A DNA stretch of 64,000 nucleotides from a virus, in IMG/VR virus record IMGVR_UViG_3300009164_000039; one strand, given 5' to 3'. The translations under genes were made by a program, and so were the position numbers. The stretch's first letter is position 1. Each line of letters starts with the position of its first letter. Shown in pieces: positions 3,265 to 12,287 of this stretch. The notes under the pieces were generated by a model. The model was not told where the DNA came from. It saw nothing but the letters and a program-made list of their open reading frames with translations, and made no database searches.

Positions 3265-3759
3265 TTATATTTCTCCAGCATCAATAATGCCATCTTCAAG
3301 AGTTGCACCCACTGGCATGTTGTTGTAATAGCCTGCCAACACTTGCACAGGCAGTCTTGCACTGTAATTGTCGTCAATGTACAGTGGAGTTTCTTTGTTG
3401 GTGGTCAGGTCAATCAATTTGACTGTGAACTCATAGTGGCGTTGATCCAGCGAATTCACAACGTCTTTGGGGATGGTAAACACGCCCAGTCCCCGATTTT
3501 GGGTTATGAAATTCACAGTAAATGCTTCCACTGTGATGGCATTTTCTGGATCCTGTATGTCTACTTGCACATCGTAGCCAGTTAGATCAACACCTTTTTG
3601 ATCCTGATTTTTAGTCACAATGTGAATAGGGTTATCAATACCCTGGTATATTTTTATTGTTCTGCTGTACACGATCCTGTTCCTCGTAGAGAAGATGGCT
3701 GGATCTATGACCTGAATTTCTAGGATATTTTTGTAAGAAAACGTTTCAATTGTTTGCAT
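3265..3759 (-). CDS. Hypothetical virion protein, possibly BppU-like baseplate upper domain
   Basis: ORF track 3265..3798. Start moved to MQTIETF because a TAAATA late promoter lies inside the longer N-terminus. IYQGIDN...VDLTG motif. Confidence 0.55.
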   Translation of the reverse strand: MQTIETFSYKNILEIQVIDPAIFSTRNRIVYSRTIKIYQGIDNPIHIVTKNQDQKGVDLTGYDVQVDIQDPENAITVEAFTVNFITQNRGLGVFTIPKDVVNSLDQRHYEFTVKLIDLTTNKETPLYIDDNYSARLPVQVLAGYYNNMPVGATLEDGIIDAGEI

Positions 3760-3813
3760 AGGATACTGTCGCCATCTGTATCCTATATTTATGGGCAAAC
3801 AATAATACTTGGC

Positions 3814-4371
3814 TTAGGCAGTGTACCGGTAGTTGACCATGATTCCCCAGCTTTCTTGCTGGCGAATATCGCTGGTGTCTGCATCAAAGTTCACTGCATG
3901 CAGGCTAGCACCGTTGCCTAAATGGAACTTGGCCACAGGATCTTTGCGTGATGCAATGAACTCTCGCACTTGTTCTTCTGTAGGAGGTGCATCAAAATGC
4001 TTGCGCAGACTAGGTACAGGGCTCAATGTGTAGAAGTTTTGCACACCTTGTGCGCTGAAATGTCCCACAGCTTCTTTCAATGCTCTAGCACCCACACCCA
4101 ACAAGGCATCAGGTAGTCGAAAGATTGTGTAAAACATGGCAGTGAGACCTTCATCTTTGCTGTCCACAAAGATACCTTTCATGCTTTGCACTAGATCGTC
4201 ACCCACACGTGTGCAAATCATGCATTGATTTTTATCTTCTTCTTCATACATCAGCACAGTGCGTGTGCCCACAGTACGTGTTTCCTTATCAATAGTTGGA
4301 TGCACAGGGTCATGTGCAATTAGCTCTAACCAAGAGCGATCAAATTTTTCAGAGTTGGATGGAATAATCAT
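3814..4371 (-). CDS. Malonyl-CoA decarboxylase catalytic (C-terminal, GNAT-fold) domain, stand-alone
   Basis: Motifs AMFYTI, FYTLSPVP and DPVAKFHLGNGASLHAVNFDAD...WGIMVNYRY match MCD signatures. The start at 4371 follows an AAGGA SD and a TAAATA promoter; the ORF-track start at 4413 overlaps a terminator. Confidence 0.85.
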   Translation of the reverse strand: MIIPSNSEKFDRSWLELIAHDPVHPTIDKETRTVGTRTVLMYEEEDKNQCMICTRVGDDLVQSMKGIFVDSKDEGLTAMFYTIFRLPDALLGVGARALKEAVGHFSAQGVQNFYTLSPVPSLRKHFDAPPTEEQVREFIASRKDPVAKFHLGNGASLHAVNFDADTSDIRQQESWGIMVNYRYTA

Positions 4372-4413
4372 GGCATTTCCTTGAGGCATTATATGCGTAT
4401 TTATTACGGCCAT

Positions 4414-4441: not shown

Positions 4442-4517
4442 TGGTCTCTCTGAGCTGAGTTGAACAGCTATCTAAACTTTAGGAGAGTCTTGTTCTATCC
4501 TATTGAACTACAGAGAG
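4442..4517 (-). tRNA. tRNA-Arg(CCU)
   Basis: Cloverleaf, loop CT-CCT-AA, encoded CCA. Confidence 0.9.
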
Positions 4518-4522
4518 TATGT

Positions 4523-4614
4523 TGGCGGAAGACGGAGGAGTCGAACCCCATCCCTGTTAAGAGAACCTGGTTTTCAAGGCCAGTCGCAGGACCAACCCCG
4601 CTGCATCATCTTCC
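4523..4614 (-). tRNA. tRNA-Ser(UGA)
   Basis: Cloverleaf with long variable arm, loop CT-TGA-AA, CCA. Confidence 0.9.
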
Positions 4615-4620
4615 ATTGAT

Positions 4621-4694
4621 TGGCGTACCCCCAGAGACTCGAACTCCGACGAACAGTTTTGGAGACTGCTATGCTGCCATTACATTAGGGATAC
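4621..4694 (-). tRNA. tRNA-Trp(CCA)
   Basis: Loop CT-CCA-AA, TTCGA T-loop, CCA. Confidence 0.92.
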
Positions 4695-4699
4695 ATTAT

Positions 4700-4775
4700 T
4701 GGTTGCGGGACTTGGATTTGAACCAAGGATGGCAAAGGCTTATGAGACCTCGCTGGTGACCGGACCCTTCCCGCG
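4700..4775 (-). tRNA. tRNA-Met(CAU), probably initiator-type
   Basis: Loop CT-CAT-AA; C1:A72 mismatch typical of fMet; anticodon stem lacks the full 3 G-C pairs. Confidence 0.85.
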
Positions 4776-4783
4776 ATAGATTC

Positions 4784-4857
4784 TATACTGAAACACACTC
4801 ACCCGAATGGACATATCCTGAGTTCCGCCTGCTGTCGGAAGTGTGTTTTAGTATAGT
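4784..4857 (-). ncRNA. Hairpin-closed small RNA module of unknown function
   Basis: 17-bp terminal inverted repeat ctatactgaaacacact / agtgtgttttagtatag with ~40 nt interior; boundaries approximate. Confidence 0.5.
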
Positions 4858-5742
4858 GGAGGACTGAGAATACATCTCTCCCATAAGCACCTCAAGCATT
4901 ATTACTAGCCTTGCGAGCCAGCTTTCTCTTGACTTCCACTAGGGTCCTTGCGGATCTCCCAGTCTGCTTACAGCATCGCCGTTTTTAACGTCAGGCAGTA
5001 GACGTGTCATCATATGCTATTCTGCGGATTCCATTCCGTTAGCCTTGCGAGCTATTCAGGTGCGCTAACACCTTACGAACCCCCCTCCACAAACTAATGT
5101 CACCTTGCGAGCTTCATTAGACTTGATTCACTTGCGTGTCAAGTATTAGATACTTTTCACATATGACCGAGGCAGTCTTTGCGTTTTTGTAATGATAGTC
5201 AGGATTTGAACCCGACTGCATCCAGCTTAAAAGGCTAGCGTTCAACCATTGAACTTTATCAACCTACCGTGATGAGCTACCTCTGTTGCTACATAATCTT
5301 TTGGACTACATAATACAACTCACCACATACCTTTCCTCTTGCGGAGTAATCAGTGATGTTTCACGACCAGTGTCCTGCATTGCTACAGTCCACCACCCAT
5401 TAACATTGCACACGAGCCCTTGGGTGCAAACCCTCGAACCAATGCACTACCCTTTCTCATACCAGCTGACTGATTGGTTTTGTTGGGAAGTCAGCACCAC
5501 CTGTTACTTTTCATGCACCCTGGTTCCCTTGCAGGCCAGTCGACGCACATTCTTTCCCCAACATCAGCTTTGCTGTTACAACCACCGGTCTTATCAGTGA
5601 TCGCTACCTCGCGATAGTGAGCAGGCTTGTTTACATGAACCATTGCTGGCGCAGGAGTGTAGGACTCATCTGCTTTGGGTGGGTCACCCCACTTATTCTT
5701 CGTACACTAGCAAGCTAGCATACAGGACAATAAACTGCCCCG
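4857..5742 (-). ncRNA. Large ornate structured RNA, GOLLD-like
   Basis: ~0.9 kb with no credible sense ORF; six C-GCAA-G hairpin loops (4910, 4947, 5044, 5104, 5131, 5338) plus further GNRA loops; inside a phage tRNA cluster; own consensus promoter; embedded tRNA-like domain. Family assignment is by resemblance, not a covariance-model search. Confidence 0.7.
5193..5261 (-). tRNA. tRNA-Lys(UUU)-like domain embedded in the GOLLD-like RNA (no CCA)
   Basis: D arm gttc/gaac, anticodon arm ctagc-CTTTTAA-gctgg, T arm tcggg-TTCAAAT-cctga, short acceptor tgata/tatca, no 3' CCA. Confidence 0.75.
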
Positions 5743-5805
5743 AAATCTTTATGCAATTGAACACTGTATGCACATTTGTATAAAGACTTGTTAACCTAAG
5801 CATCT

Positions 5806-5834
5806 ATTATAAGACACTTTTTATTTGTTGTCAA
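5806..5834 (-). promoter_or_regulatory. Sigma70-type promoter for the GOLLD-like RNA
   Basis: TTGACA-17 bp-TATAAT, perfect consensus. Confidence 0.88.
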
Positions 5835-5865
5835 TATATTTTGAGCAAAGTCCTAAAAATACATT

Positions 5866-5941
5866 TGGTAGGGCCACCCGGACTCGAACCGGGAACTGGC
5901 AGATTAAAAGTCTGCTGTGATAACCATTTCACCATAACCCC
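5866..5941 (-). tRNA. tRNA-Lys(UUU)
   Basis: Loop CT-TTT-AA, CCA. Confidence 0.93.
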
Positions 5942-5946
5942 GTATA

Positions 5947-6022
5947 TGGTCCCTGCGGCCGGAATCGAACCGGCAACCTTCTGATTAAGAGTCAGTTGCG
6001 CTACCTATTGCGCCACACAGGG
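5947..6022 (-). tRNA. tRNA-Lys(CUU)
   Basis: Loop CT-CTT-AA, CCA. Confidence 0.93.
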
Positions 6023-6083
6023 TTGTTCGTAATTTTTTGATTTTACGTGCCAACCCTAGACCAATACGGGATCTAGAGCGACA

Positions 6084-6104
6084 CTAGAGTTTACCTCGTT
6101 TCAT
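6084..6104 (-). CDS. Putative mini leader ORF MKRGKL followed by a hairpin
   Basis: GGAG SD (6111-6114), ATG AAA CGA GGT AAA CTC TAG, then a tgtcg/tggca + ctagatc/ggtctag stem. Confidence 0.45.
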   Translation of the reverse strand: MKRGKL

Positions 6105-6132
6105 GTCATTCTCCTTTGAATTAAAAACTTAC

Positions 6133-6206
6133 TGGTGCTCAAGTACAGAATCGAACTGTTGACTGCTCCTTACCATGGAGCCGTTATACCACTTAACTAC
6201 AAGAGC
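6133..6206 (-). tRNA. tRNA-Thr(GGU)
   Basis: gctcc-ATGGTAA-ggagc; unusual A32; CCA. Confidence 0.88.
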
Positions 6207-6207
6207 T

Positions 6208-6283
6208 TGGTGGAAGTGGTGAGACTCGAACTCACGATAGACACCGTATGAAGGTGGCGCATTAGCCGCTATGCTACACTTCC
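6208..6283 (-). tRNA. tRNA with CAU anticodon (elongator Met or Ile2)
   Basis: Loop TT-CAT-AC, CCA. Confidence 0.88.
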
Positions 6284-6287
6284 AGAC

Positions 6288-6365
6288 TGGAGCAACGGAC
6301 AGGATTTGAACCTGTGGTTTTCGGGATTTGCAATCCCGTGCATTGGGCCACTCTGCCACCGTTGC
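6288..6365 (-). tRNA. tRNA-Cys(GCA)
   Basis: cggga-TTGCAAA-tcccg, discriminator U, CCA. Confidence 0.92.
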
Positions 6366-6371
6366 ATTTGT

Positions 6372-6447
6372 TGGAGCGGGCGATCGGGTTCGAACCGACG
6401 ACATTTACCTTGGCAAGGTAATGCTCTACCAACTGAGCTACGCCCGC
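6372..6447 (-). tRNA. tRNA-Gly(GCC)
   Basis: ttacc-TTGCCAA-ggtaa, CCA. Confidence 0.95.
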
Positions 6448-6452
6448 ATAAA

Positions 6453-6655
6453 TTAGTGCCTAGCTACTCACACCACATGAGCCCTAGACTGAGCAGTTTA
6501 CTCTGTCTCACGTTACTGTCGTTTGGTCCAGCTATCGTCAACCCGAGATATTTTCCGTACTCCTGAGATGAAGTCGTGTGGTAAGATCTCGCGCACCAAG
6601 TCCGTCGTTATGGCAAGGGACCACTCGCCCACTTTAATAACCGTAAAGTGTAACG
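6453..6655 (-). ncRNA. ~200-nt structured non-tRNA RNA (possibly manA-motif-like)
   Basis: Long-range pairing tggtgc/gcacta and cttaccaca/tgtggtgtgag closes a multistem domain, with extra 5' hairpins. Family name is a recollection-level guess. Confidence 0.5.
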
Positions 6656-6662
6656 GAGTTTT

Positions 6663-6738
6663 TGGCTCCACAGGGTGGGCTCGAACCACCGACCAAATGA
6701 TTAACAGTCATCTACTCTACCGACTGAGCTACTGCGGA
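6663..6738 (-). tRNA. tRNA-Asn(GUU)
   Basis: Loop CT-GTT-AA, CCA. Confidence 0.95.
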
Positions 6739-6745
6739 ATAAACT

Positions 6746-6835
6746 TGGCGGAACGAAAGAGACTCGAACTCTTAAACCGGGATTAACCGATCGACGGTTT
6801 AGCAAACCGCTCCAATACCATTATGGGACCGTTCC
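6746..6835 (-). tRNA. tRNA-Ser(GCU)
   Basis: Loop TT-GCT-AA, long variable arm, CCA. Confidence 0.92.
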
Positions 6836-6845
6836 TTGTATTACT

Positions 6846-6874
6846 ATTATATAGCAACTGTGCATGCATGTCAA
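6846..6874 (-). promoter_or_regulatory. Sigma70-type promoter internal to the tRNA cluster
   Basis: TTGACA-17 bp-TATAAT, perfect consensus. Confidence 0.88.
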
Positions 6875-6882
6875 CTATATTC

Positions 6883-6958
6883 TGGTGTTTCCTAGTGGGC
6901 TTGAACCACTGACCTTTAGGATGTCGACCTAGTGCTCTACCAGCTGAGCTAAGGAAAC
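6883..6958 (-). tRNA. tRNA-Val(GAC)
   Basis: Loop TC-GAC-AT (non-canonical C33), CCA. Confidence 0.85.
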
Positions 6959-6959
6959 C

Positions 6960-7038
6960 TGGTACCCTGTCTCTGATTCGAACAGAGAGAACTCTTCCTT
7001 TTGAGAGAAGCGACTTTACCTAATTTGTCCAACAGGGC
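6960..7038 (-). tRNA. tRNA-Leu(CAA)
   Basis: cttct-CTCAAAA-ggaag, short variable region, CCA. Confidence 0.87.
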
Positions 7039-7044
7039 ATTGTG

Positions 7045-7120
7045 TGGTACCAAGAGTTGGACTCGAACCAACCACACCTAGTGCTTCAAACTAGTGCTCT
7101 ACCTGATGAGCTATCTTGGC
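7045..7120 (-). tRNA. tRNA-Phe(GAA)
   Basis: ctagt-TTGAAGC-actag, CCA. Confidence 0.92.
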
Positions 7121-7127
7121 ATTATCT

Positions 7128-7186
7128 TAGGGACGCCGGCTCAGCTTGGTCGTTTAAGACACGCAGGACATCTGCGTGGCTCCCTA
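7128..7186 (-). ncRNA. Small three-way RNA with TCTTAAACGACCAAGC core (copy 1; possibly Acido-Lenti-1-like)
   Basis: Closing stem tagggagcc/ggcgtcccta, hairpin cacgcag/ctgcgtg; core shared with the 8009-8069 element. Confidence 0.6.
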
Positions 7187-7192
7187 TAAAAT

Positions 7193-7267
7193 TGGGTTGA
7201 GGTACGAGGATCGAACTCGTGATAGCGGAATCACAACCCGCGGTTTTGCCACTAAACTAACCTCAAC
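7193..7267 (-). tRNA. tRNA-His(GUG)
   Basis: Loop TT-GTG-AT, encoded G-1 opposite C73, CCA. Confidence 0.93.
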
Positions 7268-7273
7268 ATTGTC

Positions 7274-7348
7274 TGGCCGGTCCTGCAGGAATCGAACCCA
7301 CACCGCTTGGTTCGAAGCCAAGCATTCTATCCATTGAACTAAGGACCG
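7274..7348 (-). tRNA. tRNA-Arg(UCG)
   Basis: cttgg-CTTCGAA-ccaag, CCA. Confidence 0.93.
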
Positions 7349-7355
7349 AATATGT

Positions 7356-7429
7356 TGGCACGGGAACTAGGGATCGAACCTAGGACGACAGAGTCAAAGT
7401 CTGTTGTGTTACCTCTACACCATTCCCGA
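7356..7429 (-). tRNA. tRNA-Gln(UUG)
   Basis: acaga-CTTTGAC-tctgt, CCA. Confidence 0.92.
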
Positions 7430-7436
7430 ACAGATC

Positions 7437-7513
7437 TGGTGCGACCAGAGAGATTCGAACTCCCCACCCCAACGTTCGTAGCGTTGTACTCTATCCAAAT
7501 GAGCTATGGTCGC
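7437..7513 (-). tRNA. tRNA-Arg(ACG)
   Basis: caacg-CTACGAA-cgttg, CCA. Confidence 0.93.
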
Positions 7514-7520
7514 ATAATTA

Positions 7521-7570
7521 GTGCTAGATTGTTTACTGCACAACCTAGCAAAGCAGGGGTCTGTAAACTG
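7521..7570 (-). ncRNA. Compact putative H-type pseudoknot RNA
   Basis: P1 gttta/taaac plus ctgc/gcag; loop tgctagg complementary to 3' tail tctagca. Confidence 0.45.
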
Positions 7571-7614
7571 CATATAACTTATCACATTGTACTCCATATG
7601 CAAGGGAGAGTGCT

Positions 7615-7689
7615 TGGTATCCTGCACGGGTATCGATCCCGTTCCTACACCTTGAAAGGGTATTGATCTAGCCAGTAATCTAGCAGGAT
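7615..7689 (-). tRNA. tRNA-Glu(UUC), atypical copy
   Basis: atacc-CTTTCAA-ggtgt; T-loop reads ATCGATA (A at 54); CCA. Confidence 0.8.
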
Positions 7690-7698
7690 GTATTGAAT

Positions 7699-7918
7699 TT
7701 GAGAGCCTACGCCGCATTTATCGTAGATTTATTCAGGACTTACCGGCCGCCTAGCCTGACCTCGAGCACGATGGATATCACTTGGGATCCGTCCAGCGTA
7801 GTCTCCTTTACAGACCTCCGCAGTTGCCCGCGGGTGGGAGTTGAACCCATTTGCCTTTTACTGTTTTGGTCCTTCGAAGAAACCTCATTAGCGTGACTGT
7901 ACTTGCTGACACTCTCAA
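7699..7918 (-). ncRNA. ~220-nt stem-closed RNA containing a T-arm mimic
   Basis: Terminal IR tttgagag/ctctcaaa; internal tggg-TTCAACT-ccca T-arm; no anticodon/CCA architecture. Confidence 0.45.
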
Positions 7919-7922
7919 AACT

Positions 7923-7996
7923 TGGTGGAGGACCAGGGTATTGAACCCTTGTAGTCAGTATGCTTGCAAGGCAAACCCGCCGCCCTCGGCTCCCCC
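7923..7996 (-). tRNA. tRNA-Ala(UGC), atypical copy with degenerate D arm
   Basis: Loop CT-TGC-AA, G3:U70 Ala identity pair, CCA; D arm poorly paired. Confidence 0.75.
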
Positions 7997-8008
7997 CATT
8001 GTACTATC

Positions 8009-8069
8009 TACAGGACACCCCTATGGGCTTGGTTGTTTAAGAGTACGCCTACCCAGCGACTCTCCTCTA
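8009..8069 (-). ncRNA. Small three-way RNA with TCTTAAACAACCAAGC core (copy 2)
   Basis: Hairpin agagtcgc/gcgtactct, core, short ccc/ggg hairpin, closing agga/tcct. Confidence 0.55.
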
Positions 8070-8074
8070 AAACT

Positions 8075-8150
8075 TGGCGCCTCGTAGGGGACTCGAACCC
8101 CTGACATCCGACTAGACAGGCCGGCACTCTACCAACTGAGTTAACGAAGC
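8075..8150 (-). tRNA. tRNA-Asp(GUC)
   Basis: ccggc-CTGTCTA-gtcgg, CCA. Confidence 0.92.
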
Positions 8151-8157
8151 AGAAAGA

Positions 8158-8231
8158 TGGAGCGGGGTAGGAGAATCGAACTCCTCGCTTTAGCTTGGAA
8201 GGCTAAGGTATTACCACTATACGAACCCCGC
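8158..8231 (-). tRNA. tRNA-Gly(UCC)
   Basis: ttagc-CTTCCAA-gctaa, CCA. Confidence 0.94.
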
Positions 8232-8239
8232 ATAGATTT

Positions 8240-8315
8240 TGGTGGAGGATACAGGGATCGAACCTGCGACCTATTGCTTGCAAAGCAACCGCTCTCCCAA
8301 CTGAGCTAATCCCCC
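8240..8315 (-). tRNA. tRNA-Ala(UGC), canonical copy
   Basis: Loop TT-TGC-AA, G3:U70, CCA. Confidence 0.95.
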
Positions 8316-8322
8316 AATGACA

Positions 8323-8399
8323 TGGTCGGAGTACAAGGATTCGAACCTTGGACCCCCTGGTCCCAAACCAGGTGCGCTACCAGACTGCGCCACACTCCG
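8323..8399 (-). tRNA. tRNA-Pro(UGG)
   Basis: cctgg-TTTGGGA-ccagg, CCA. Confidence 0.95.
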
Positions 8400-8404
8400 A
8401 TGAT

Positions 8405-8480
8405 TGGTGCCCCCTGTCCGACTCGAACAGACCACCTTCTGATTACAAAACAGATGCTCTACCTGATGAGCTAAGAGGGC
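8405..8480 (-). tRNA. tRNA-Thr(UGU)
   Basis: Loop TT-TGT-AA, CCA. Confidence 0.92.
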
Positions 8481-8487
8481 AAAAACT

Positions 8488-8562
8488 TGGTGCGAGATGA
8501 GAGTGTCGAACTCCCGACCCTCTGAATGTAAATCAGATGCTCTACCGCTGAGCTAATCTCGC
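8488..8562 (-). tRNA. tRNA-Val(UAC)
   Basis: tctga-TTTACAT-tcaga, CCA. Confidence 0.92.
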
Positions 8563-8588
8563 AAATTAATTTTGTATTTTATTTAACA

Positions 8589-8663
8589 TGGTTGCCATGG
8601 ACAGTTTCGAAATGTCGACCTATCGGTTATCAACCGATTGCTCTTCCTCTGAGCTACACGGCA
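8589..8663 (-). tRNA. tRNA-Ile(GAU)
   Basis: atcgg-TTGATAA-ccgat, CCA. Confidence 0.92.
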
Positions 8664-8669
8664 AAAATG

Positions 8670-8744
8670 TGGTACTGGGCACGGGAATCGAACCCGTCTT
8701 ACAAACGTGAAAGGCTTGTGTCCTAACCGATAGACGAGCCCAGC
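8670..8744 (-). tRNA. tRNA-Glu(UUC), canonical copy
   Basis: caagc-CTTTCAC-gtttg, TTCGA T-loop, CCA. Confidence 0.92.
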
Positions 8745-8751
8745 ATACAAA

Positions 8752-8838
8752 TGGTGGAGACGGTAGGAATCGAACCTACGGTGTTTCTGATGTCACTGAT
8801 TTACAGTCAGCTGCCTTCGCCGCTCGGCACACATCTCC
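8752..8838 (-). tRNA. tRNA-Tyr(GUA)
   Basis: gctga-CTGTAAA-tcagt, long variable arm, CCA. Confidence 0.93.
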
Positions 8839-8840
8839 AT

Positions 8841-8931
8841 ATAGGAACACACTACCAGTCCCGAGGATTCGAACCTCTTTCTCTTATAGTTTACCACGAC
8901 TTTTGCAGTCAGGCAAGCAATGTGTTTTTAT
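8841..8931 (-). ncRNA. Stem-closed RNA module with a T-arm mimic
   Basis: Terminal IR around aacaca/tgtgtt; internal gagg-TTCGAAT-cctc. Confidence 0.45.
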
Positions 8932-8932
8932 A

Positions 8933-9009
8933 TGGTGCCCCAGAGGAGACTCGAACTCCTAAAATTTGGCTTCTAAGACCAACACGTATACCAATTCCGT
9001 CACCGGGGC
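8933..9009 (-). tRNA. tRNA-Leu(UAG)
   Basis: ttggt-CTTAGAA-gccaa, short variable region, CCA. Confidence 0.9.
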
Positions 9010-9099
9010 AATTTGTCACAACAGATTGTTAAGGAACCATGTTCGTCTGCATGACTATGCAGTTGTTATTAGCAACACGATGTTTGCTACAGTTCCACA

Positions 9100-9127
9100 A
9101 GTATAACATCTTTTTCATTGTTGTCTA
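9100..9127 (-). promoter_or_regulatory. Possible sigma70-type promoter
   Basis: TAGACA-16 bp-TATACT. Confidence 0.45.
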
Positions 9128-9161
9128 CTAGTTTGTAAAAATATTTTTCTTCTGTTGTTTT

Positions 9162-9240
9162 TATGCACTCTAGTTGTTGCGTCCACAACCTGCCGCCTGC
9201 CGAGTCATGGTCGGGTGGGCTTGGCCTTCTAGAGTGTATA
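9162..9240 (-). ncRNA. Hairpin-closed small RNA module
   Basis: 12-bp terminal IR tatgcactctag/ctagagtgtata; interior contains AGGCGG; boundaries approximate. Confidence 0.45.
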
Positions 9241-9304
9241 GTAAAGTGTTCTACACGGATACGTACCCGCCTTTCGCCTCGCGGCTAGAGAACACTTTAC
9301 TATA
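9237..9304 (-). ncRNA. Hairpin-closed small RNA module
   Basis: Perfect 16-bp terminal IR tatagtaaagtgttct/agaacactttactata; interior contains AGGCGG. Confidence 0.5.
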
Positions 9305-9425
9305 ACTGGATTTTACACATCTGCGTTGTCGCCACAGACTTATCATCCCCAGTCCCGCCCTCATTATAGCCGATGTTTTGAGTGCCGGCAGGGTCGCGTT
9401 CCCTATACACACTTTTCATGATCCT

Positions 9426-9462
9426 AAAAACAAAAAACCCCAGGGTGTTAAGCCTAGGGTCC
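9426..9462 (-). terminator. Attenuator terminator upstream of the main tRNA operon
   Basis: accctagg-cttaacac-cctggggt followed by TTTTTGTTTTT; the 5' arm is also complementary to the leader ORF 3' end. Confidence 0.85.
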
Positions 9463-9488
9463 TTGGAGTTTGCAGTTGTTAATTTGTG

Positions 9489-9626
9489 TTAACTGTGCAT
9501 GGTCTCCTGGACCCTTGATTCCTGTGGTGTGCGATCATTACTAATCTCAGTCGCAGACCAGCTGGCCATTGGCAATGAATAGCCTAGGTTATGCTGTTTG
9601 CTAAAGAGTGAGAATGATTTACACAT
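9489..9626 (-). CDS. 45-aa attenuator leader peptide (MCKSFSLFSKQHNLGYSLPMASWSATEISNDRTPQESRVQETMHS)
   Basis: Manual translation; AAGGA SD upstream; lies between a consensus promoter and a terminator; its 3' end forms the antiterminator. Confidence 0.72.
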   Translation of the reverse strand: MCKSFSLFSKQHNLGYSLPMASWSATEISNDRTPQESRVQETMHS

Positions 9627-9674
9627 TTTGTTTACTTTTCCTTTTTTACAGGCTGCTTTTGCAACCTATGTCGT

Positions 9675-9703
9675 ATTGTATATTTATTTAGTCCTGCTGT
9701 CAA
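9675..9703 (-). promoter_or_regulatory. Sigma70-type promoter with an embedded CTAAATA late-promoter core
   Basis: TTGACA-17 bp-TACAAT; spacer gcaggaCTAAATAaata. Confidence 0.82.
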
Positions 9704-9754
9704 CCAGCTTTGGAATATTTAGTTTTTTGTTGTAAAAATACAACAAATTGAATT

Positions 9755-9853
9755 TGGTGCCCTTGGCAGGAGTCGAACCTGCACACTGTGGCTTATCTAG
9801 CCACTGCTTTGGCGAGGTATAAGCTCGCTTCTTTACCATTAAGCTACAAGGGC
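9755..9853 (-). tRNA. tRNA-Ile(UAU) with a large extra arm (99 nt)
   Basis: gcgag-CTTATAC-ctcgc; ~28-nt variable region with gtggct/agccac hairpin; TTCGA T-loop; CCA. Confidence 0.82.
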
Positions 9854-9858
9854 ATGAT

Positions 9859-9942
9859 TGGTGCGACTGGCCGGACTCGAACCGGCATGCCGTGAAGCGG
9901 GAGATTTTAAGTCTCCTGAGTATACCATTTCTCCACAGTCGC
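9859..9942 (-). tRNA. tRNA-Leu(UAA)
   Basis: ggaga-CTTAAAA-tctcc, variable arm, CCA. Confidence 0.93.
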
Positions 9943-9962
9943 ATTAGAGCACGTTGATCAGA

Positions 9963-10007
9963 TCAACGTATTCGTAATCGTATGCTGTGGAGAGCCTTGT
10001 AGTTCAT
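9963..10007 (-). CDS. Putative leaderless 14-aa mini-ORF MNYKALHSIRLRIR
   Basis: ATG 7 nt below a -10 box; ends ATA CGA TTA CGA ATA CGT TGA; stop lies inside a 9-bp inverted repeat (9951-9969). Confidence 0.5.
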   Translation of the reverse strand: MNYKALHSIRLRIR

Positions 10008-10013
10008 GTGTGT

Positions 10014-10041
10014 ATAATAGCTTGAATGTTTATTTATGTCA
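10014..10041 (-). promoter_or_regulatory. Sigma70-type promoter with overlapping ATAAATA
   Basis: TTGACA-16 bp-TATTAT. Confidence 0.65.
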
Positions 10042-10050
10042 AGCAAAAAT

Positions 10051-10839
10051 TTATGGCTTGACAACCAAAAATCCAGCGATAGCAGGGATCACTCGATTGC
10101 GTCGAGGTTGGCTGGCCATGGTGGTCATGCTGGTTTGTACTACAAATCCCACTTGTTCTACATGTGCTTGCACTTGATCTGTGCAGGTGTACAAAAATAT
10201 ATGATCATGCGATGCGGCATTGATAGCCGCACTAACAAATGCTGTACCACCCGGCCGTAGCACACGATGCAGTTGTGTCAAGAACTGTACCGGATCCTCC
10301 ACATGCTCTAGCACTTCAACACACACCAACCAATCAGTACTGGCATCCGGTGTTTGTTCTATGCTTTGCACTGTTGCCTGGTACCTAGTGGGGTTCAGTG
10401 CAGATGCAAACTCAACTGAAGCAGGACTGATGTCAATTGCATGTCCTTGTATGTTAGACCATGTTTGCAAGATCTTCCAAGAGTATGCGCCAGATCCGAC
10501 CCCAACATCTAAAAACTCAGTAGCATCAGCCATCTGTTGCACAAATTGATCTTGGAAAAAGCAAAGCTGACGATACTGGTGCGGCCATAGCCAGTGTGAT
10601 AACAACAGTCCGGGCAAGTACTCTGTCATCATGTGTTCTTTGTTTAGGTACACTGCGTCACTGACCTGTTGGTGAGTACGATTGCGATACTGTCCGGTGC
10701 GGTTGAATTCAATTTGGTACTTGATTAGTCTAGTACAAAAATTACGATAGGCAACTTGATAGGACACAGGAAAGCAATCAAATTCTTGTTTCCAAGAATC
10801 ACCAAACAGCCGATATGCTTGATCTTGATGGGAGATCAT
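10051..10839 (-). CDS. Class I SAM-dependent methyltransferase
   Basis: FLDVGVGSG motif I; EVLEHVEDP...LHRVLRPGG. Confidence 0.88.
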   Translation of the reverse strand: MISHQDQAYRLFGDSWKQEFDCFPVSYQVAYRNFCTRLIKYQIEFNRTGQYRNRTHQQVSDAVYLNKEHMMTEYLPGLLLSHWLWPHQYRQLCFFQDQFVQQMADATEFLDVGVGSGAYSWKILQTWSNIQGHAIDISPASVEFASALNPTRYQATVQSIEQTPDASTDWLVCVEVLEHVEDPVQFLTQLHRVLRPGGTAFVSAAINAASHDHIFLYTCTDQVQAHVEQVGFVVQTSMTTMASQPRRNRVIPAIAGFLVVKP

Positions 10840-11327
10840 TTAACAAAGTCCACCATTAGTATCACACGTTCGCTTGATGATTTATTAGCAGCCTGGTGTT
10901 TTTTCCTATCATCAAACAACATCATCTGCCCTTCTTCCCAATAGTAGCAGGTGTTTTTTACTTGTATAAATGCGTTGCCAGGGCAGATCAGTCCCAGATG
11001 CGATCTCCACACATTATCAGTGTAGCCTCTATGTGGATGAATCACACAGTCTGGTTCCATGATAGAAAATCCTGCTAGGTACAGGCCCGGAATGTCTTTG
11101 ATTAGTTCTCGGGTGACAGGACAATTATCCCATCCTGCTTGTTTCTGGTATTGATGTACAAGAAAATACAAGCGCCAACGCTCGTTGTGCAGTTCTTTCA
11201 TGTGCCAGAGTTCTGCTTGTTCTCTGTAGAGTAAAAACTCATCACGGATTGCTTGCCAGTTGTCTTGCAACGGCTTGAGGAACGGGTAAGCATCAATTGA
11301 TTGAAACACAGGAAGTTGATCTCTCAT
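10836..11327 (-). CDS. Aspartyl/asparaginyl beta-hydroxylase family 2OG-Fe(II) dioxygenase (LpxO-like)
   Basis: AGFSIMEPDCVIHPHRGY, RSHLGLICP, W.EG...LFDD...H.A.N.S..ERVILMVDF. Confidence 0.88.
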   Translation of the reverse strand: MRDQLPVFQSIDAYPFLKPLQDNWQAIRDEFLLYREQAELWHMKELHNERWRLYFLVHQYQKQAGWDNCPVTRELIKDIPGLYLAGFSIMEPDCVIHPHRGYTDNVWRSHLGLICPGNAFIQVKNTCYYWEEGQMMLFDDRKKHQAANKSSSERVILMVDFVK

Positions 11328-11349
11328 ACAAGTATATATGCTGAGGTAT

Positions 11350-11424
11350 TGGTCCGGCGCACAGGAATCGAACCCGTATTCTAGAGGTAGAAGCTCTATG
11401 TATTATCCGTTATACGAACGCCAG
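11350..11424 (-). tRNA. tRNA-Arg(UCU)
   Basis: tagag-CTTCTAC-ctcta, CCA. Confidence 0.92.
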
Positions 11425-11429
11425 TTGTT

Positions 11430-11504
11430 TGGTGGGCTGACTTGGAATTGAACCAAGACTCAATGAATTATGAGTTCACTGCTTTACCATTAAGCTATCA
11501 GCCC
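11430..11504 (-). tRNA. tRNA with CAU anticodon (Ile2 or Met)
   Basis: gtgaa-CTCATAA-ttcat, CCA. Confidence 0.9.
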
Positions 11505-11512
11505 GTTGAACT

Positions 11513-11541
11513 ATTGTATGTTAATTTATCTTTTGTGTCAA
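11513..11541 (-). promoter_or_regulatory. Sigma70-type promoter for the tRNA(CAU)-tRNA-Arg-hydroxylase-methyltransferase unit
   Basis: TTGACA-17 bp-TACAAT. Confidence 0.8.
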
Positions 11542-12287
11542 TCTTCAACTGAATAGTAGTCTTTGTCCAACCAAGCATGCACGATATCTTCTTGTCTTAG
11601 ATATCCGTAGCTGTTGACACTGGCTATACAGTTGTCGTTGATCAGGCCTTGGTCAGCCAGGTGCTGCCAATTGGTAGTTCGTGGATCTAAAAAGTTTTCT
11701 GAGTTTTTATAAACTGCGGCATAGATCCAAGGATTTTCTCTGCGCTTGTAGAAATAGGCATCACGACAATCAAACCCATTGATGGCCAACATGTACATTA
11801 GGTTGCCGTATGTGTAGTTGTAGTAGCATCCATTCATGGTGCGATGCACTAGTCTGTTGTGATGATAGTTTATCTGCTGTGGAATAGTTAAAATCATCAT
11901 ACCATTCACATTCATTTGCTGGTTCCACAATTTAAGTGTGCTCAATGGATTGATTGCGTACTGGAACGCATCGTGGCACCAAAGAACATCCACAGGCTTG
12001 GGCAACAATGCAGTTTCAAAATCGCCTTTGATCACTGTGACATTTTCCGGCAAGTCTACTACCAGTCGATTGGTATCTATATCCACAGCATAACAATCAA
12101 AATTATAGGGCTCAAATGGGTCTTCTTTGTTGGTTAGTGTAGCCCACCAATTGATATCCAAGCCACCACCACAGCCCAGGTCTGCCACAGTGGTAACAGA
12201 TTCTAGAAAATCATCATAACCGTACAACAGATCTAGCACATAACTGGAATGTTCGTGACTGTGGTACGGGTTTCTAAACTGTTCCAT
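11538..12287 (-). CDS. Class I SAM-dependent methyltransferase
   Basis: VADLGCGGG motif I; YAVDID; DVLWCHDAFQY. Confidence 0.85.
   Translation of the reverse strand: MEQFRNPYHSHEHSSYVLDLLYGYDDFLESVTTVADLGCGGGLDINWWATLTNKEDPFEPYNFDCYAVDIDTNRLVVDLPENVTVIKGDFETALLPKPVDVLWCHDAFQYAINPLSTLKLWNQQMNVNGMMILTIPQQINYHHNRLVHRTMNGCYYNYTYGNLMYMLAINGFDCRDAYFYKRRENPWIYAAVYKNSENFLDPRTTNWQHLADQGLINDNCIASVNSYGYLRQEDIVHAWLDKDYYSVED

Follow-up and report, generated by a model that had tools for sequence, protein, structure and literature searches.

A putative minimal malonyl-CoA decarboxylase encoded by large freshwater phages

Bacteria build their fatty acids, and hence their phospholipids and lipid A, from malonyl-CoA, the committed precursor. 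If a phage were to remove it with a small, cofactor-free enzyme, the gene would represent a new type of auxiliary metabolic or host-takeover function, and would also make a simple genetic tool to lower malonyl-CoA in cells. The locus described here raises the question of whether a phage gene resembling only the catalytic part of malonyl-CoA decarboxylase (MCD) could code for such an enzyme, and on which substrate it would act.

The gene and its upstream signals

The window, the whole stretch of 64,000 nucleotides of IMG/VR record IMGVR_UViG_3300009164_000039 that was analysed, belongs to a large tailed freshwater phage and codes for a terminase, a tail sheath, a tail tube, a UvsX-like recombinase and virion proteins. 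The stretch is present in freshwater and lake metagenomes, and the GenBank phage collection contains neither a DNA match to it nor a tblastn match to the MCD protein. The minus-strand open reading frame (ORF) at the locus spans 3814..4413 and codes for 199 aa when counted from its first ATG. The start codon was assessed in an alignment of the window with two related IMG/VR phages, L001 and L002 (87% and 85% protein identity, respectively). The ATG at 4413 is not kept in either of them; it abuts the T-run of a terminator and lies upstream of a promoter-like motif. The true start is most likely the ATG at 4371-4369, which gives a protein of 185 aa, because a Shine-Dalgarno sequence lies 5' of it and both elements are conserved in L001 and L002. 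The features of the locus are the following.

3265..3798, minus strand: downstream neighbour, 164-177 aa, function not assigned, no Pfam match, phrog_1084, with its own ATAAATA at 3786-3792
3814..4371, minus strand: coding sequence of the minimal MCD, 185 aa, 20.9 kDa, pI 5.5, stop codon at 3814-3816
4376..4382, minus strand: Shine-Dalgarno sequence AAGGAAA, ending 4 nt from the ATG at 4371, with AGGAAA kept in L001 and L002
4398..4404, minus strand: ATAAATA, candidate late-type promoter core, 26 nt 5' of the start codon
4414..4433, minus strand: intrinsic terminator closing the tRNA block, a 5-bp GC-rich hairpin (4433-4420) followed by T7
4442..4517, minus strand: tRNA-Arg(CCT), last gene of the upstream 32-tRNA island

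A preliminary description of this DNA had announced a protein of ~185 aa, which matches both the product from the conserved ATG at 4371 and the length of most relatives, and had named the motifs TLSP and DPVAKFHLGNGA...VNYRY, both of which we found in the translated ORF. The end that it gave for the gene, 4410, has to be moved to 4371, as it takes in ~39 nt of leader, and the strand (minus) had been left unstated. The GC content of the gene (0.457) equals that of the window and its GC3 likewise matches the rest of the window; the composition of the gene is native to the phage. Beyond the downstream neighbour, which also adjoins the MCD gene in L005, lie tail-fibre-like genes. The possibility that this 177-aa neighbouring ORF represents a split N-terminal domain of MCD was considered and ruled out, as it has no Pfam match.

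On the gene strand, tRNA-Arg(CCT) is followed directly by the GC-rich hairpin and T7, then by an invariant block containing ATAAATA and, 26 nt further (counted by hand to the conserved ATG), by the start codon, which places the gene just past a tRNA terminator, as had been claimed. The island that ends there comprises 32 tRNA genes at 4442-11504. At its upstream end, two genes for SAM-methyltransferases and one for an Asp/Asn beta-hydroxylase-family protein occupy positions 10051-12287 of the minus strand, with the last two tRNA genes of the island sitting between them. L002 carries a different hairpin and T-run in place of the window's terminator. The block around ATAAATA (~4387-4407) is invariant in the three phages, with diverged flanks.

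ATAAATA occurs 17 times in the window, compared to 7.5 ± 2.6 times in shuffled sequences, and 15 of the 17 copies are on the gene strand. Eleven copies lie 19-29 nt 5' of the ATG of an ORF, the mini-MCD gene included.

57766, 56327, 49030, 48704, 44601, 42495, 35043, 28520, 25096, 4404 and 3792, minus strand: ATAAATA before eleven genes, from a motif scan

Five of the ten other motif-led genes have virion-protein matches, including a tail tube and a head-tail adaptor-like protein. ATAAATA is a real, recurrent motif tied to structural genes, and a candidate for the core of late promoters in these phages. The late-type promoter announced earlier is upheld to the extent that the motif is present, recurs before virion genes and lies in a block that is invariant in three phages. 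The T4 late promoter is TATAAATA, and by analogy the window motif may act like it; read from the motif alone, expression of the mini-MCD gene would be late. Four metatranscriptome runs gave mostly tRNA coverage, with a single low-depth 269-nt contig of a relative within the gene, which does not amount to evidence of expression.

Fold and active site of the predicted protein

The assignment to the MCD family was borne out by a strong match to Pfam PF05292, the MCD C-terminal catalytic domain (E 6.1e-20, 72.4 bits versus a cut-off of 23.2). Against PDB sequences, phmmer gave significant E-values only for MCDs, bacterial and human. PHROGs contains no family for the protein, and NCBIfam none for either the phage or the bacterial short form. 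An AlphaFold2 model based on a 54-sequence alignment (pLDDT 95.8, pTM 0.90) was compared with solved structures by means of Foldseek and VIA-align. For this predicted model, five solved MCDs (4F0X, 2YGW, 4KSF, 4KSA, 4KS9) rank first, with Z 18.2-20.6, rmsd 2.1-2.4 Å and 178-184 residues aligned. Human MCD (4F0X) superposes with Z 20.6 and rmsd 2.3 Å over 184 of the 185 residues, corresponding to chain residues 196-458, and the model aligns on residues 172-416 of A. vitis MCD and 180-424 of R. palustris MCD. Next come the GNAT-like decarboxylases of polyketide synthases (PKSs) SxtA, CurA and GphF (Z 17.1-18.6); plain N-acetyltransferases rank lower still (Z ≤14.4, ~140 residues).

Structure prediction thus returned an MCD catalytic domain with a GNAT-like fold, lacking the N-terminal helical domain. 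This absence, which had been noted at the outset, is seen both in the search for MCD_N (PF17408), which found no match in the protein at E up to 1, and in the model, which begins at the equivalent of human residue 196. The domain is not found nearby either: the upstream DNA is tRNA and the downstream ORF has no Pfam match. Solved MCDs use it to assemble into dimers and tetramers (PMC3701320). The helical insert between beta5 and beta6 (alpha5-alpha7), which is poorly conserved, is also largely missing, with 17 residues compared to 61 in R. palustris MCD, and the catalytic Ser and His are spaced by 33 residues, compared to 77 in R. palustris and 94 in human MCD. Pfam model positions ~150-212 are unmatched in the Bacteroidota short forms described below. 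According to Froese et al., the beta5-beta6 insert blocks the usual GNAT dimerisation mode (PMC3701320). The phage protein thus comprises the entire catalytic core of MCD and nothing more.

Active-site residues were mapped through a HMMER alignment to chain 4ksa, the numbering of which is offset by 6 from that of PMC3701320, as confirmed by Ser312 and His389. Residue numbers follow the 185-aa protein.

4021..4023, minus strand: codon of Ser117 (TLSP), equivalent to human Ser329 and R. palustris Ser312
3922..3924, minus strand: codon of His150 (FHL), equivalent to human His423 and R. palustris His389

The Ser of TLSP and the His of FHL, proposed earlier as the catalytic pair, do map to human Ser329 and His423 and are invariant in the family. 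In the same alignment, Phe80 corresponds to human Phe288, which is proposed to lie under the leaving carboxylate, Tyr183 to human Tyr456, which holds the catalytic His, and Asp165 to an MCD-conserved Asp at the position of CurA Arg404, an Arg linked to S-acetyl transfer (PMC3701320). None of these five residues (Ser117, His150, Phe80, Tyr183 and Asp165) varies among 54 sequences, both short and full-length. Lys148, at a position occupied by Lys or Arg in the family, aligns with R. palustris Arg387, which is proposed to bind the 3'-phosphate of CoA (PMC3701320). All 15 columns that are invariant across short and full-length MCDs are retained in the phage protein, and its motif A glycine is kept.

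Could the protein have been repurposed as an acyl-CoA-dependent transferase, or decarboxylate a different dicarboxyl-CoA? The GNAT fold itself, which many plain N-acetyltransferases match at Z 12-14, and the divergence of the sequence from assayed MCDs speak for it. We give this explanation little credence, since the protein has a His where canonical GNATs have their catalytic Tyr and an Asp where CurA has an Arg implicated in S-acetyl transfer (PMC3701320), keeps all 15 MCD-invariant columns, and has relatives whose operon context points to malonate.

The ranking of the PKS domains, which are the next-best structural matches and of the same size (~195-205 residues), brings in a different substrate. 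Malonyl- or methylmalonyl-ACP, and not the CoA ester, would be decarboxylated to acetyl-ACP, so that fatty-acid synthesis would be hit one step later or primed differently. The GNAT domains of CurA and GphF are described as malonyl-ACP decarboxylating (PMC10127204), and PKS domains use the same Ser/Thr-His dyad (PMC3701320). An ACP thioester is nonetheless an unlikely substrate. The phage protein shares 25-28% identity with MCDs versus 14-17% with the PKS domains, its Pfam match is to MCD only, and a basic residue, Lys148, is retained where R. palustris MCD has its proposed CoA 3'-phosphate-binding Arg. Moreover, none of the five related phage records codes for an ACP, and the cellular orthologues adjoin a ligase related to a Sphingomonas MatB-like malonyl-CoA synthase, which makes a CoA ester.

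Short forms in phages and in freshwater Bacteroidota

An indexed search revealed at least 66 clusters at 90% identity, mostly of 183-192-aa proteins. An exhaustive search gave ~20 clusters at 50% identity with E ≤1e-14, of which 14 are 187-211 aa long and the others shorter, apparently partial; it found nothing longer than 211 aa above E 1e-12, and the phage protein is therefore not a piece of a longer one. Thirteen short-form loci are present in IMG/VR, one of them in a 364-kb record to which CheckV assigns 100% completeness. The gene is under purifying selection in both phage clades (dN/dS 0.05-0.10). These data bear on the view that the phage captured a host gene of which a decaying or non-enzymatic remnant is left. 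The size of the protein, half the length of characterised MCDs, and the lack of partner genes could be taken to speak for this. Such a remnant is highly improbable in light of the low dN/dS in two phage clades, the conserved length in the clusters found at 90% identity, the very confident model (pLDDT 95.8) and the invariance of the catalytic residues.

No malonyl-CoA synthetase or transporter gene accompanies the MCD gene in the window or in four of the five phage records. An AMP-binding ligase is likewise absent from four of the five, the 364-kb record among them; the exception, L003, contains a single AMP-binding ORF, at a distance of 6.6 kb and on the other strand. The genes around the MCD gene vary from one phage lineage to the next and form no coherent pathway. 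In lineages other than that of the window, they include an RNA ligase-kinase-phosphoesterase set, AhpC, a GDSL lipase, a BPL_N-like protein, an Endonuclease_NS and ClpP. In another jumbo-phage clade, represented by the 364-kb IMG/VR record (L008:3825-7652; L006 and L007 are alike), the short MCD gene lies between two gene sets, one coding for a phosphoesterase, an AAA_33 kinase and a T4-type RNA ligase, which resembles tRNA repair, and the other for an AhpC peroxiredoxin and a GDSL lipase. At L010:6613-7284, and also in L009 and L012-L015, a gene for a 224-aa biotin-protein-ligase N-terminal/class I amidotransferase-like protein lies directly 3' of the short MCD gene; a tie of this protein to biotin-dependent carboxylation is conceivable. 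A gene for a DNA/RNA non-specific endonuclease adjoins the short MCD gene in two divergent viral contigs (L003:8640-9458 and L016:5053-5865; 33-38% identity to the query). At L017:5245-6495, on a 15-kb IMG/VR 'viral' contig that may be bacterial DNA, a gene codes for a full-length MCD (417 aa, MCD_N and MCD). A literature search found no paper on phage-borne or short-form MCDs and no assay of any short-form MCD.

Scanning one genome per GTDB species returned 29 close matches, all of them on contigs of metagenome-assembled genomes (MAGs) of freshwater Flavobacterium, Chitinophagaceae and other Bacteroidota, except for one labelled Rhizobium. The MCD locus of this contig (L027, 'Rhizobium sp. 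Q54') is essentially identical to that of L028 (Chitinophaga pinensis) from the same project, and its label is probably a binning error. The contigs are bacterial, as judged from their GH2 glycosidase, uxuA and uxaC genes and from Shine-Dalgarno motifs at only 5% of their ORFs.

In these Bacteroidota MAGs, the gene for the ~190-aa MCD is the last of a conserved operon (for example L026:418-6573, L036:322-6591 and L020:3319-6576, among L018-L044), and an AMP-binding ligase gene adjoins it at 23 of 28 loci. The ligases form one similarity family with a Sphingomonas flavalba ligase that is encoded next to a full-length MCD and reaches 807 bits as a malonyl-CoA synthase. Of two Bacteroidota ligases tested, that of L026 has malonyl-CoA synthase as its best NCBIfam match (475 bits, under the cut-off of 558), and that of L036 has it as a close second. 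The transporter of the operon is either an MFS protein or the malonate transporter subunits MadL (134.6 bits versus a cut-off of 113.45, TIGR00807) and MadM (Pfam E 4e-107). No other MCD locus and no MCD_N domain were detected in five of five such Bacteroidota genomes, while MCD_N was detected in three of three proteobacterial genomes used as a positive control. PF05292 was found in none of 150 other sampled Flavobacteriales, making this a sporadic trait. The operon also holds a gene for a GH2 glycosidase or a BD-FAE/GDSL esterase, and in some MAGs lies next to uxuA or uxaC; it may serve as a pathway for malonylated glycosides or free malonate.

By its gene content, the operon appears to be a classic mat-type malonate pathway with the short MCD in MatA's place. 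Being the sole MCD in an operon with a malonate transporter and a ligase is strong contextual evidence that the short form works as a malonyl-CoA decarboxylase without the N-terminal domain. Furthermore, some freshwater Bacteroidota have the minimal MCD as their only one, and it is therefore not a phage invention.

The evident role of these cellular short MCDs suggests that the phage protein, with the same chemistry, might boost malonate assimilation by the host, whose own MatB and transporter would supply external malonate for conversion to acetyl-CoA and energy during infection, in place of a block on lipid synthesis. Phages often carry single bottleneck enzymes of host pathways, and such carriage would fit this role. 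We regard it as quite unlikely, as neither a ligase nor a transporter gene goes with the MCD gene in the window or in four of five phage records, MCD is rare among relatives of the sampled hosts (the 0 of 150 Flavobacteriales cited above), and a host matB is unsupported.

Relationships among the copies were inferred from a quick IQ-TREE analysis (LG+C20; 84 rows, 194 columns). The short forms group in a single clade (SH-aLRT 98), which a long stem separates from the full-length MCDs. Inside it, a 50-row clade (SH-aLRT 95) unites Bacteroidota subclades with two viral clades, that of the window (8 rows, SH-aLRT 100) and that of L006-L011 (7 rows, SH-aLRT 96). The phage copies thus appear nested among Bacteroidota copies, the branching order within the 50-row clade not being settled by the tree. 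Transfer between Bacteroidota and phages, in either direction and one or more times, is evident from these sequences. Shine-Dalgarno-like motifs precede 30 of 54 ORFs in the phages of the window's clade and 42 of 68 in the other phage clade (56-62%), compared to 5% in Bacteroidota contigs L018-L046. This heavy use in both phage clades conflicts with the nesting of the phage MCD among Bacteroidota genes, and suggests that the hosts are probably not Bacteroidota; the Bacteroidota with the most similar MCDs are therefore probably not the ones that the MCD-carrying phages infect.

Proposed function and comparison with known systems

We estimate at roughly 60% the probability that the gene encodes an active malonyl-CoA decarboxylase acting on the host malonyl-CoA pool. 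Between the two functions put forward in the preliminary description, a drain on malonyl-CoA and an acyl-CoA-dependent transferase, the drain is favoured, because cellular members of the short clade sit in apparent malonate-utilisation operons and an Asp occupies the CurA Arg position. What the phage protein does, where its substrate comes from and how the phage gains from it are inferred as follows. The protein would be a stand-alone, cofactor-free malonyl-CoA decarboxylase cut down to the GNAT-like catalytic core. It would be transcribed from the late-type promoter, along with virion genes, in the phase of virion production. Its substrate would be malonyl-CoA made by the acetyl-CoA carboxylase of the host, as the phage brings no malonyl-CoA synthetase, malonate transporter or ACP. 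The Ser117-His150 dyad, with its His held by Tyr183, would polarise the thioester carbonyl of malonyl-CoA; CO2 would depart over Phe80, and protonation of the enolate would yield acetyl-CoA. Removal of malonyl-CoA would stop type II synthesis of fatty acids, and with it the production of phospholipids and lipid A, in a cell with no further growth ahead of it, while C2 units would return to acetyl-CoA. An argument from the saving of resources is weak, because ATP would be wasted in a cycle if MCD ran against an active acetyl-CoA carboxylase. The phage protein shares only 43-48% identity with the operon-borne bacterial copies, and its specificity could have shifted from theirs.

More tentatively, large freshwater phages may have repeatedly captured a minimal MCD that they express with their late genes and that collapses the malonyl-CoA pool of the host, a viral device dedicated to shutting down the synthesis of fatty acids and envelope lipids in bacteria. 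If true, this would be a type of host takeover not described so far, and the N-terminal domain of MCD would be dispensable for catalysis. The whole short clade, cellular and viral, is devoid of the domain that oligomerises solved MCDs (PMC3701320), and so offers a test of this structural claim. The Bacteroidota operons, with their malonate transporter, ligase and short MCD, are a ready natural system in which to prove activity.

The enzyme family itself is well known (MCD/MatA/MLYCD, EC 4.1.1.9; PF05292 and PF17408; PDB 2YGW, 4F0X, 4KSA, 4KSF, 4KS9). What is new here is the minimal architecture and its carriage by viruses, together with the ~190-aa form as the only MCD in MAGs of freshwater Flavobacterium and Chitinophagaceae, where it closes the malonate operon. 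The catalytic domain of the phage protein is homologous to that of known MCDs and superposes over 184 of 185 residues; the equivalents of the Ser-His dyad, Phe288, Tyr456 and the conserved Asp are identical, and the motif A glycine is kept. Unlike these enzymes of ~420-490 aa, the 185-aa phage protein lacks the N-terminal helical oligomerisation domain and has a shortened insert. Cellular short forms adjoin a MatB-like ligase, as matA does, whereas the phage copy differs from the matA cluster (matB and a transporter) in having neither neighbour and in its late-type promoter.

The GNAT-like decarboxylases of PKS loading modules (CurA GNAT_L 2REE/2REF, GphF 6MFC, SxtA 7UCI) are of the same size class (~200 residues), share the GNAT-derived fold (Z 17-18.6) and use the same His-Ser/Thr decarboxylation chemistry on a malonyl thioester that is predicted for the phage protein. 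However, they are domains of megasynthases working on ACP-tethered substrates, are 14-17% identical to the phage protein and, in CurA, have Arg404 where it has an Asp. The phage protein, unlike the CurA, GphF and SxtA domains, stands alone between tRNA and tail-fibre genes, with no PKS context.

The malonyl-ACP decarboxylases MadA and MadB (PF09500; PMC8666670) are also small and cofactor-free, act on malonyl thioesters and alter entry into bacterial fatty-acid synthesis, but they have an unrelated hot-dog fold with a catalytic Asn, and the GNAT domain of MadA is not its decarboxylase. Finally, canonical GNATs such as RimI and AAC(6') have in common with the phage protein the core beta-sheet and the CoA-binding beta4-loop-helix, but with 6-17% identity and Z ≤14.4 over ~140 residues. 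Their general-acid Tyr is replaced by His in the phage protein, which has no general base on the acceptor side.
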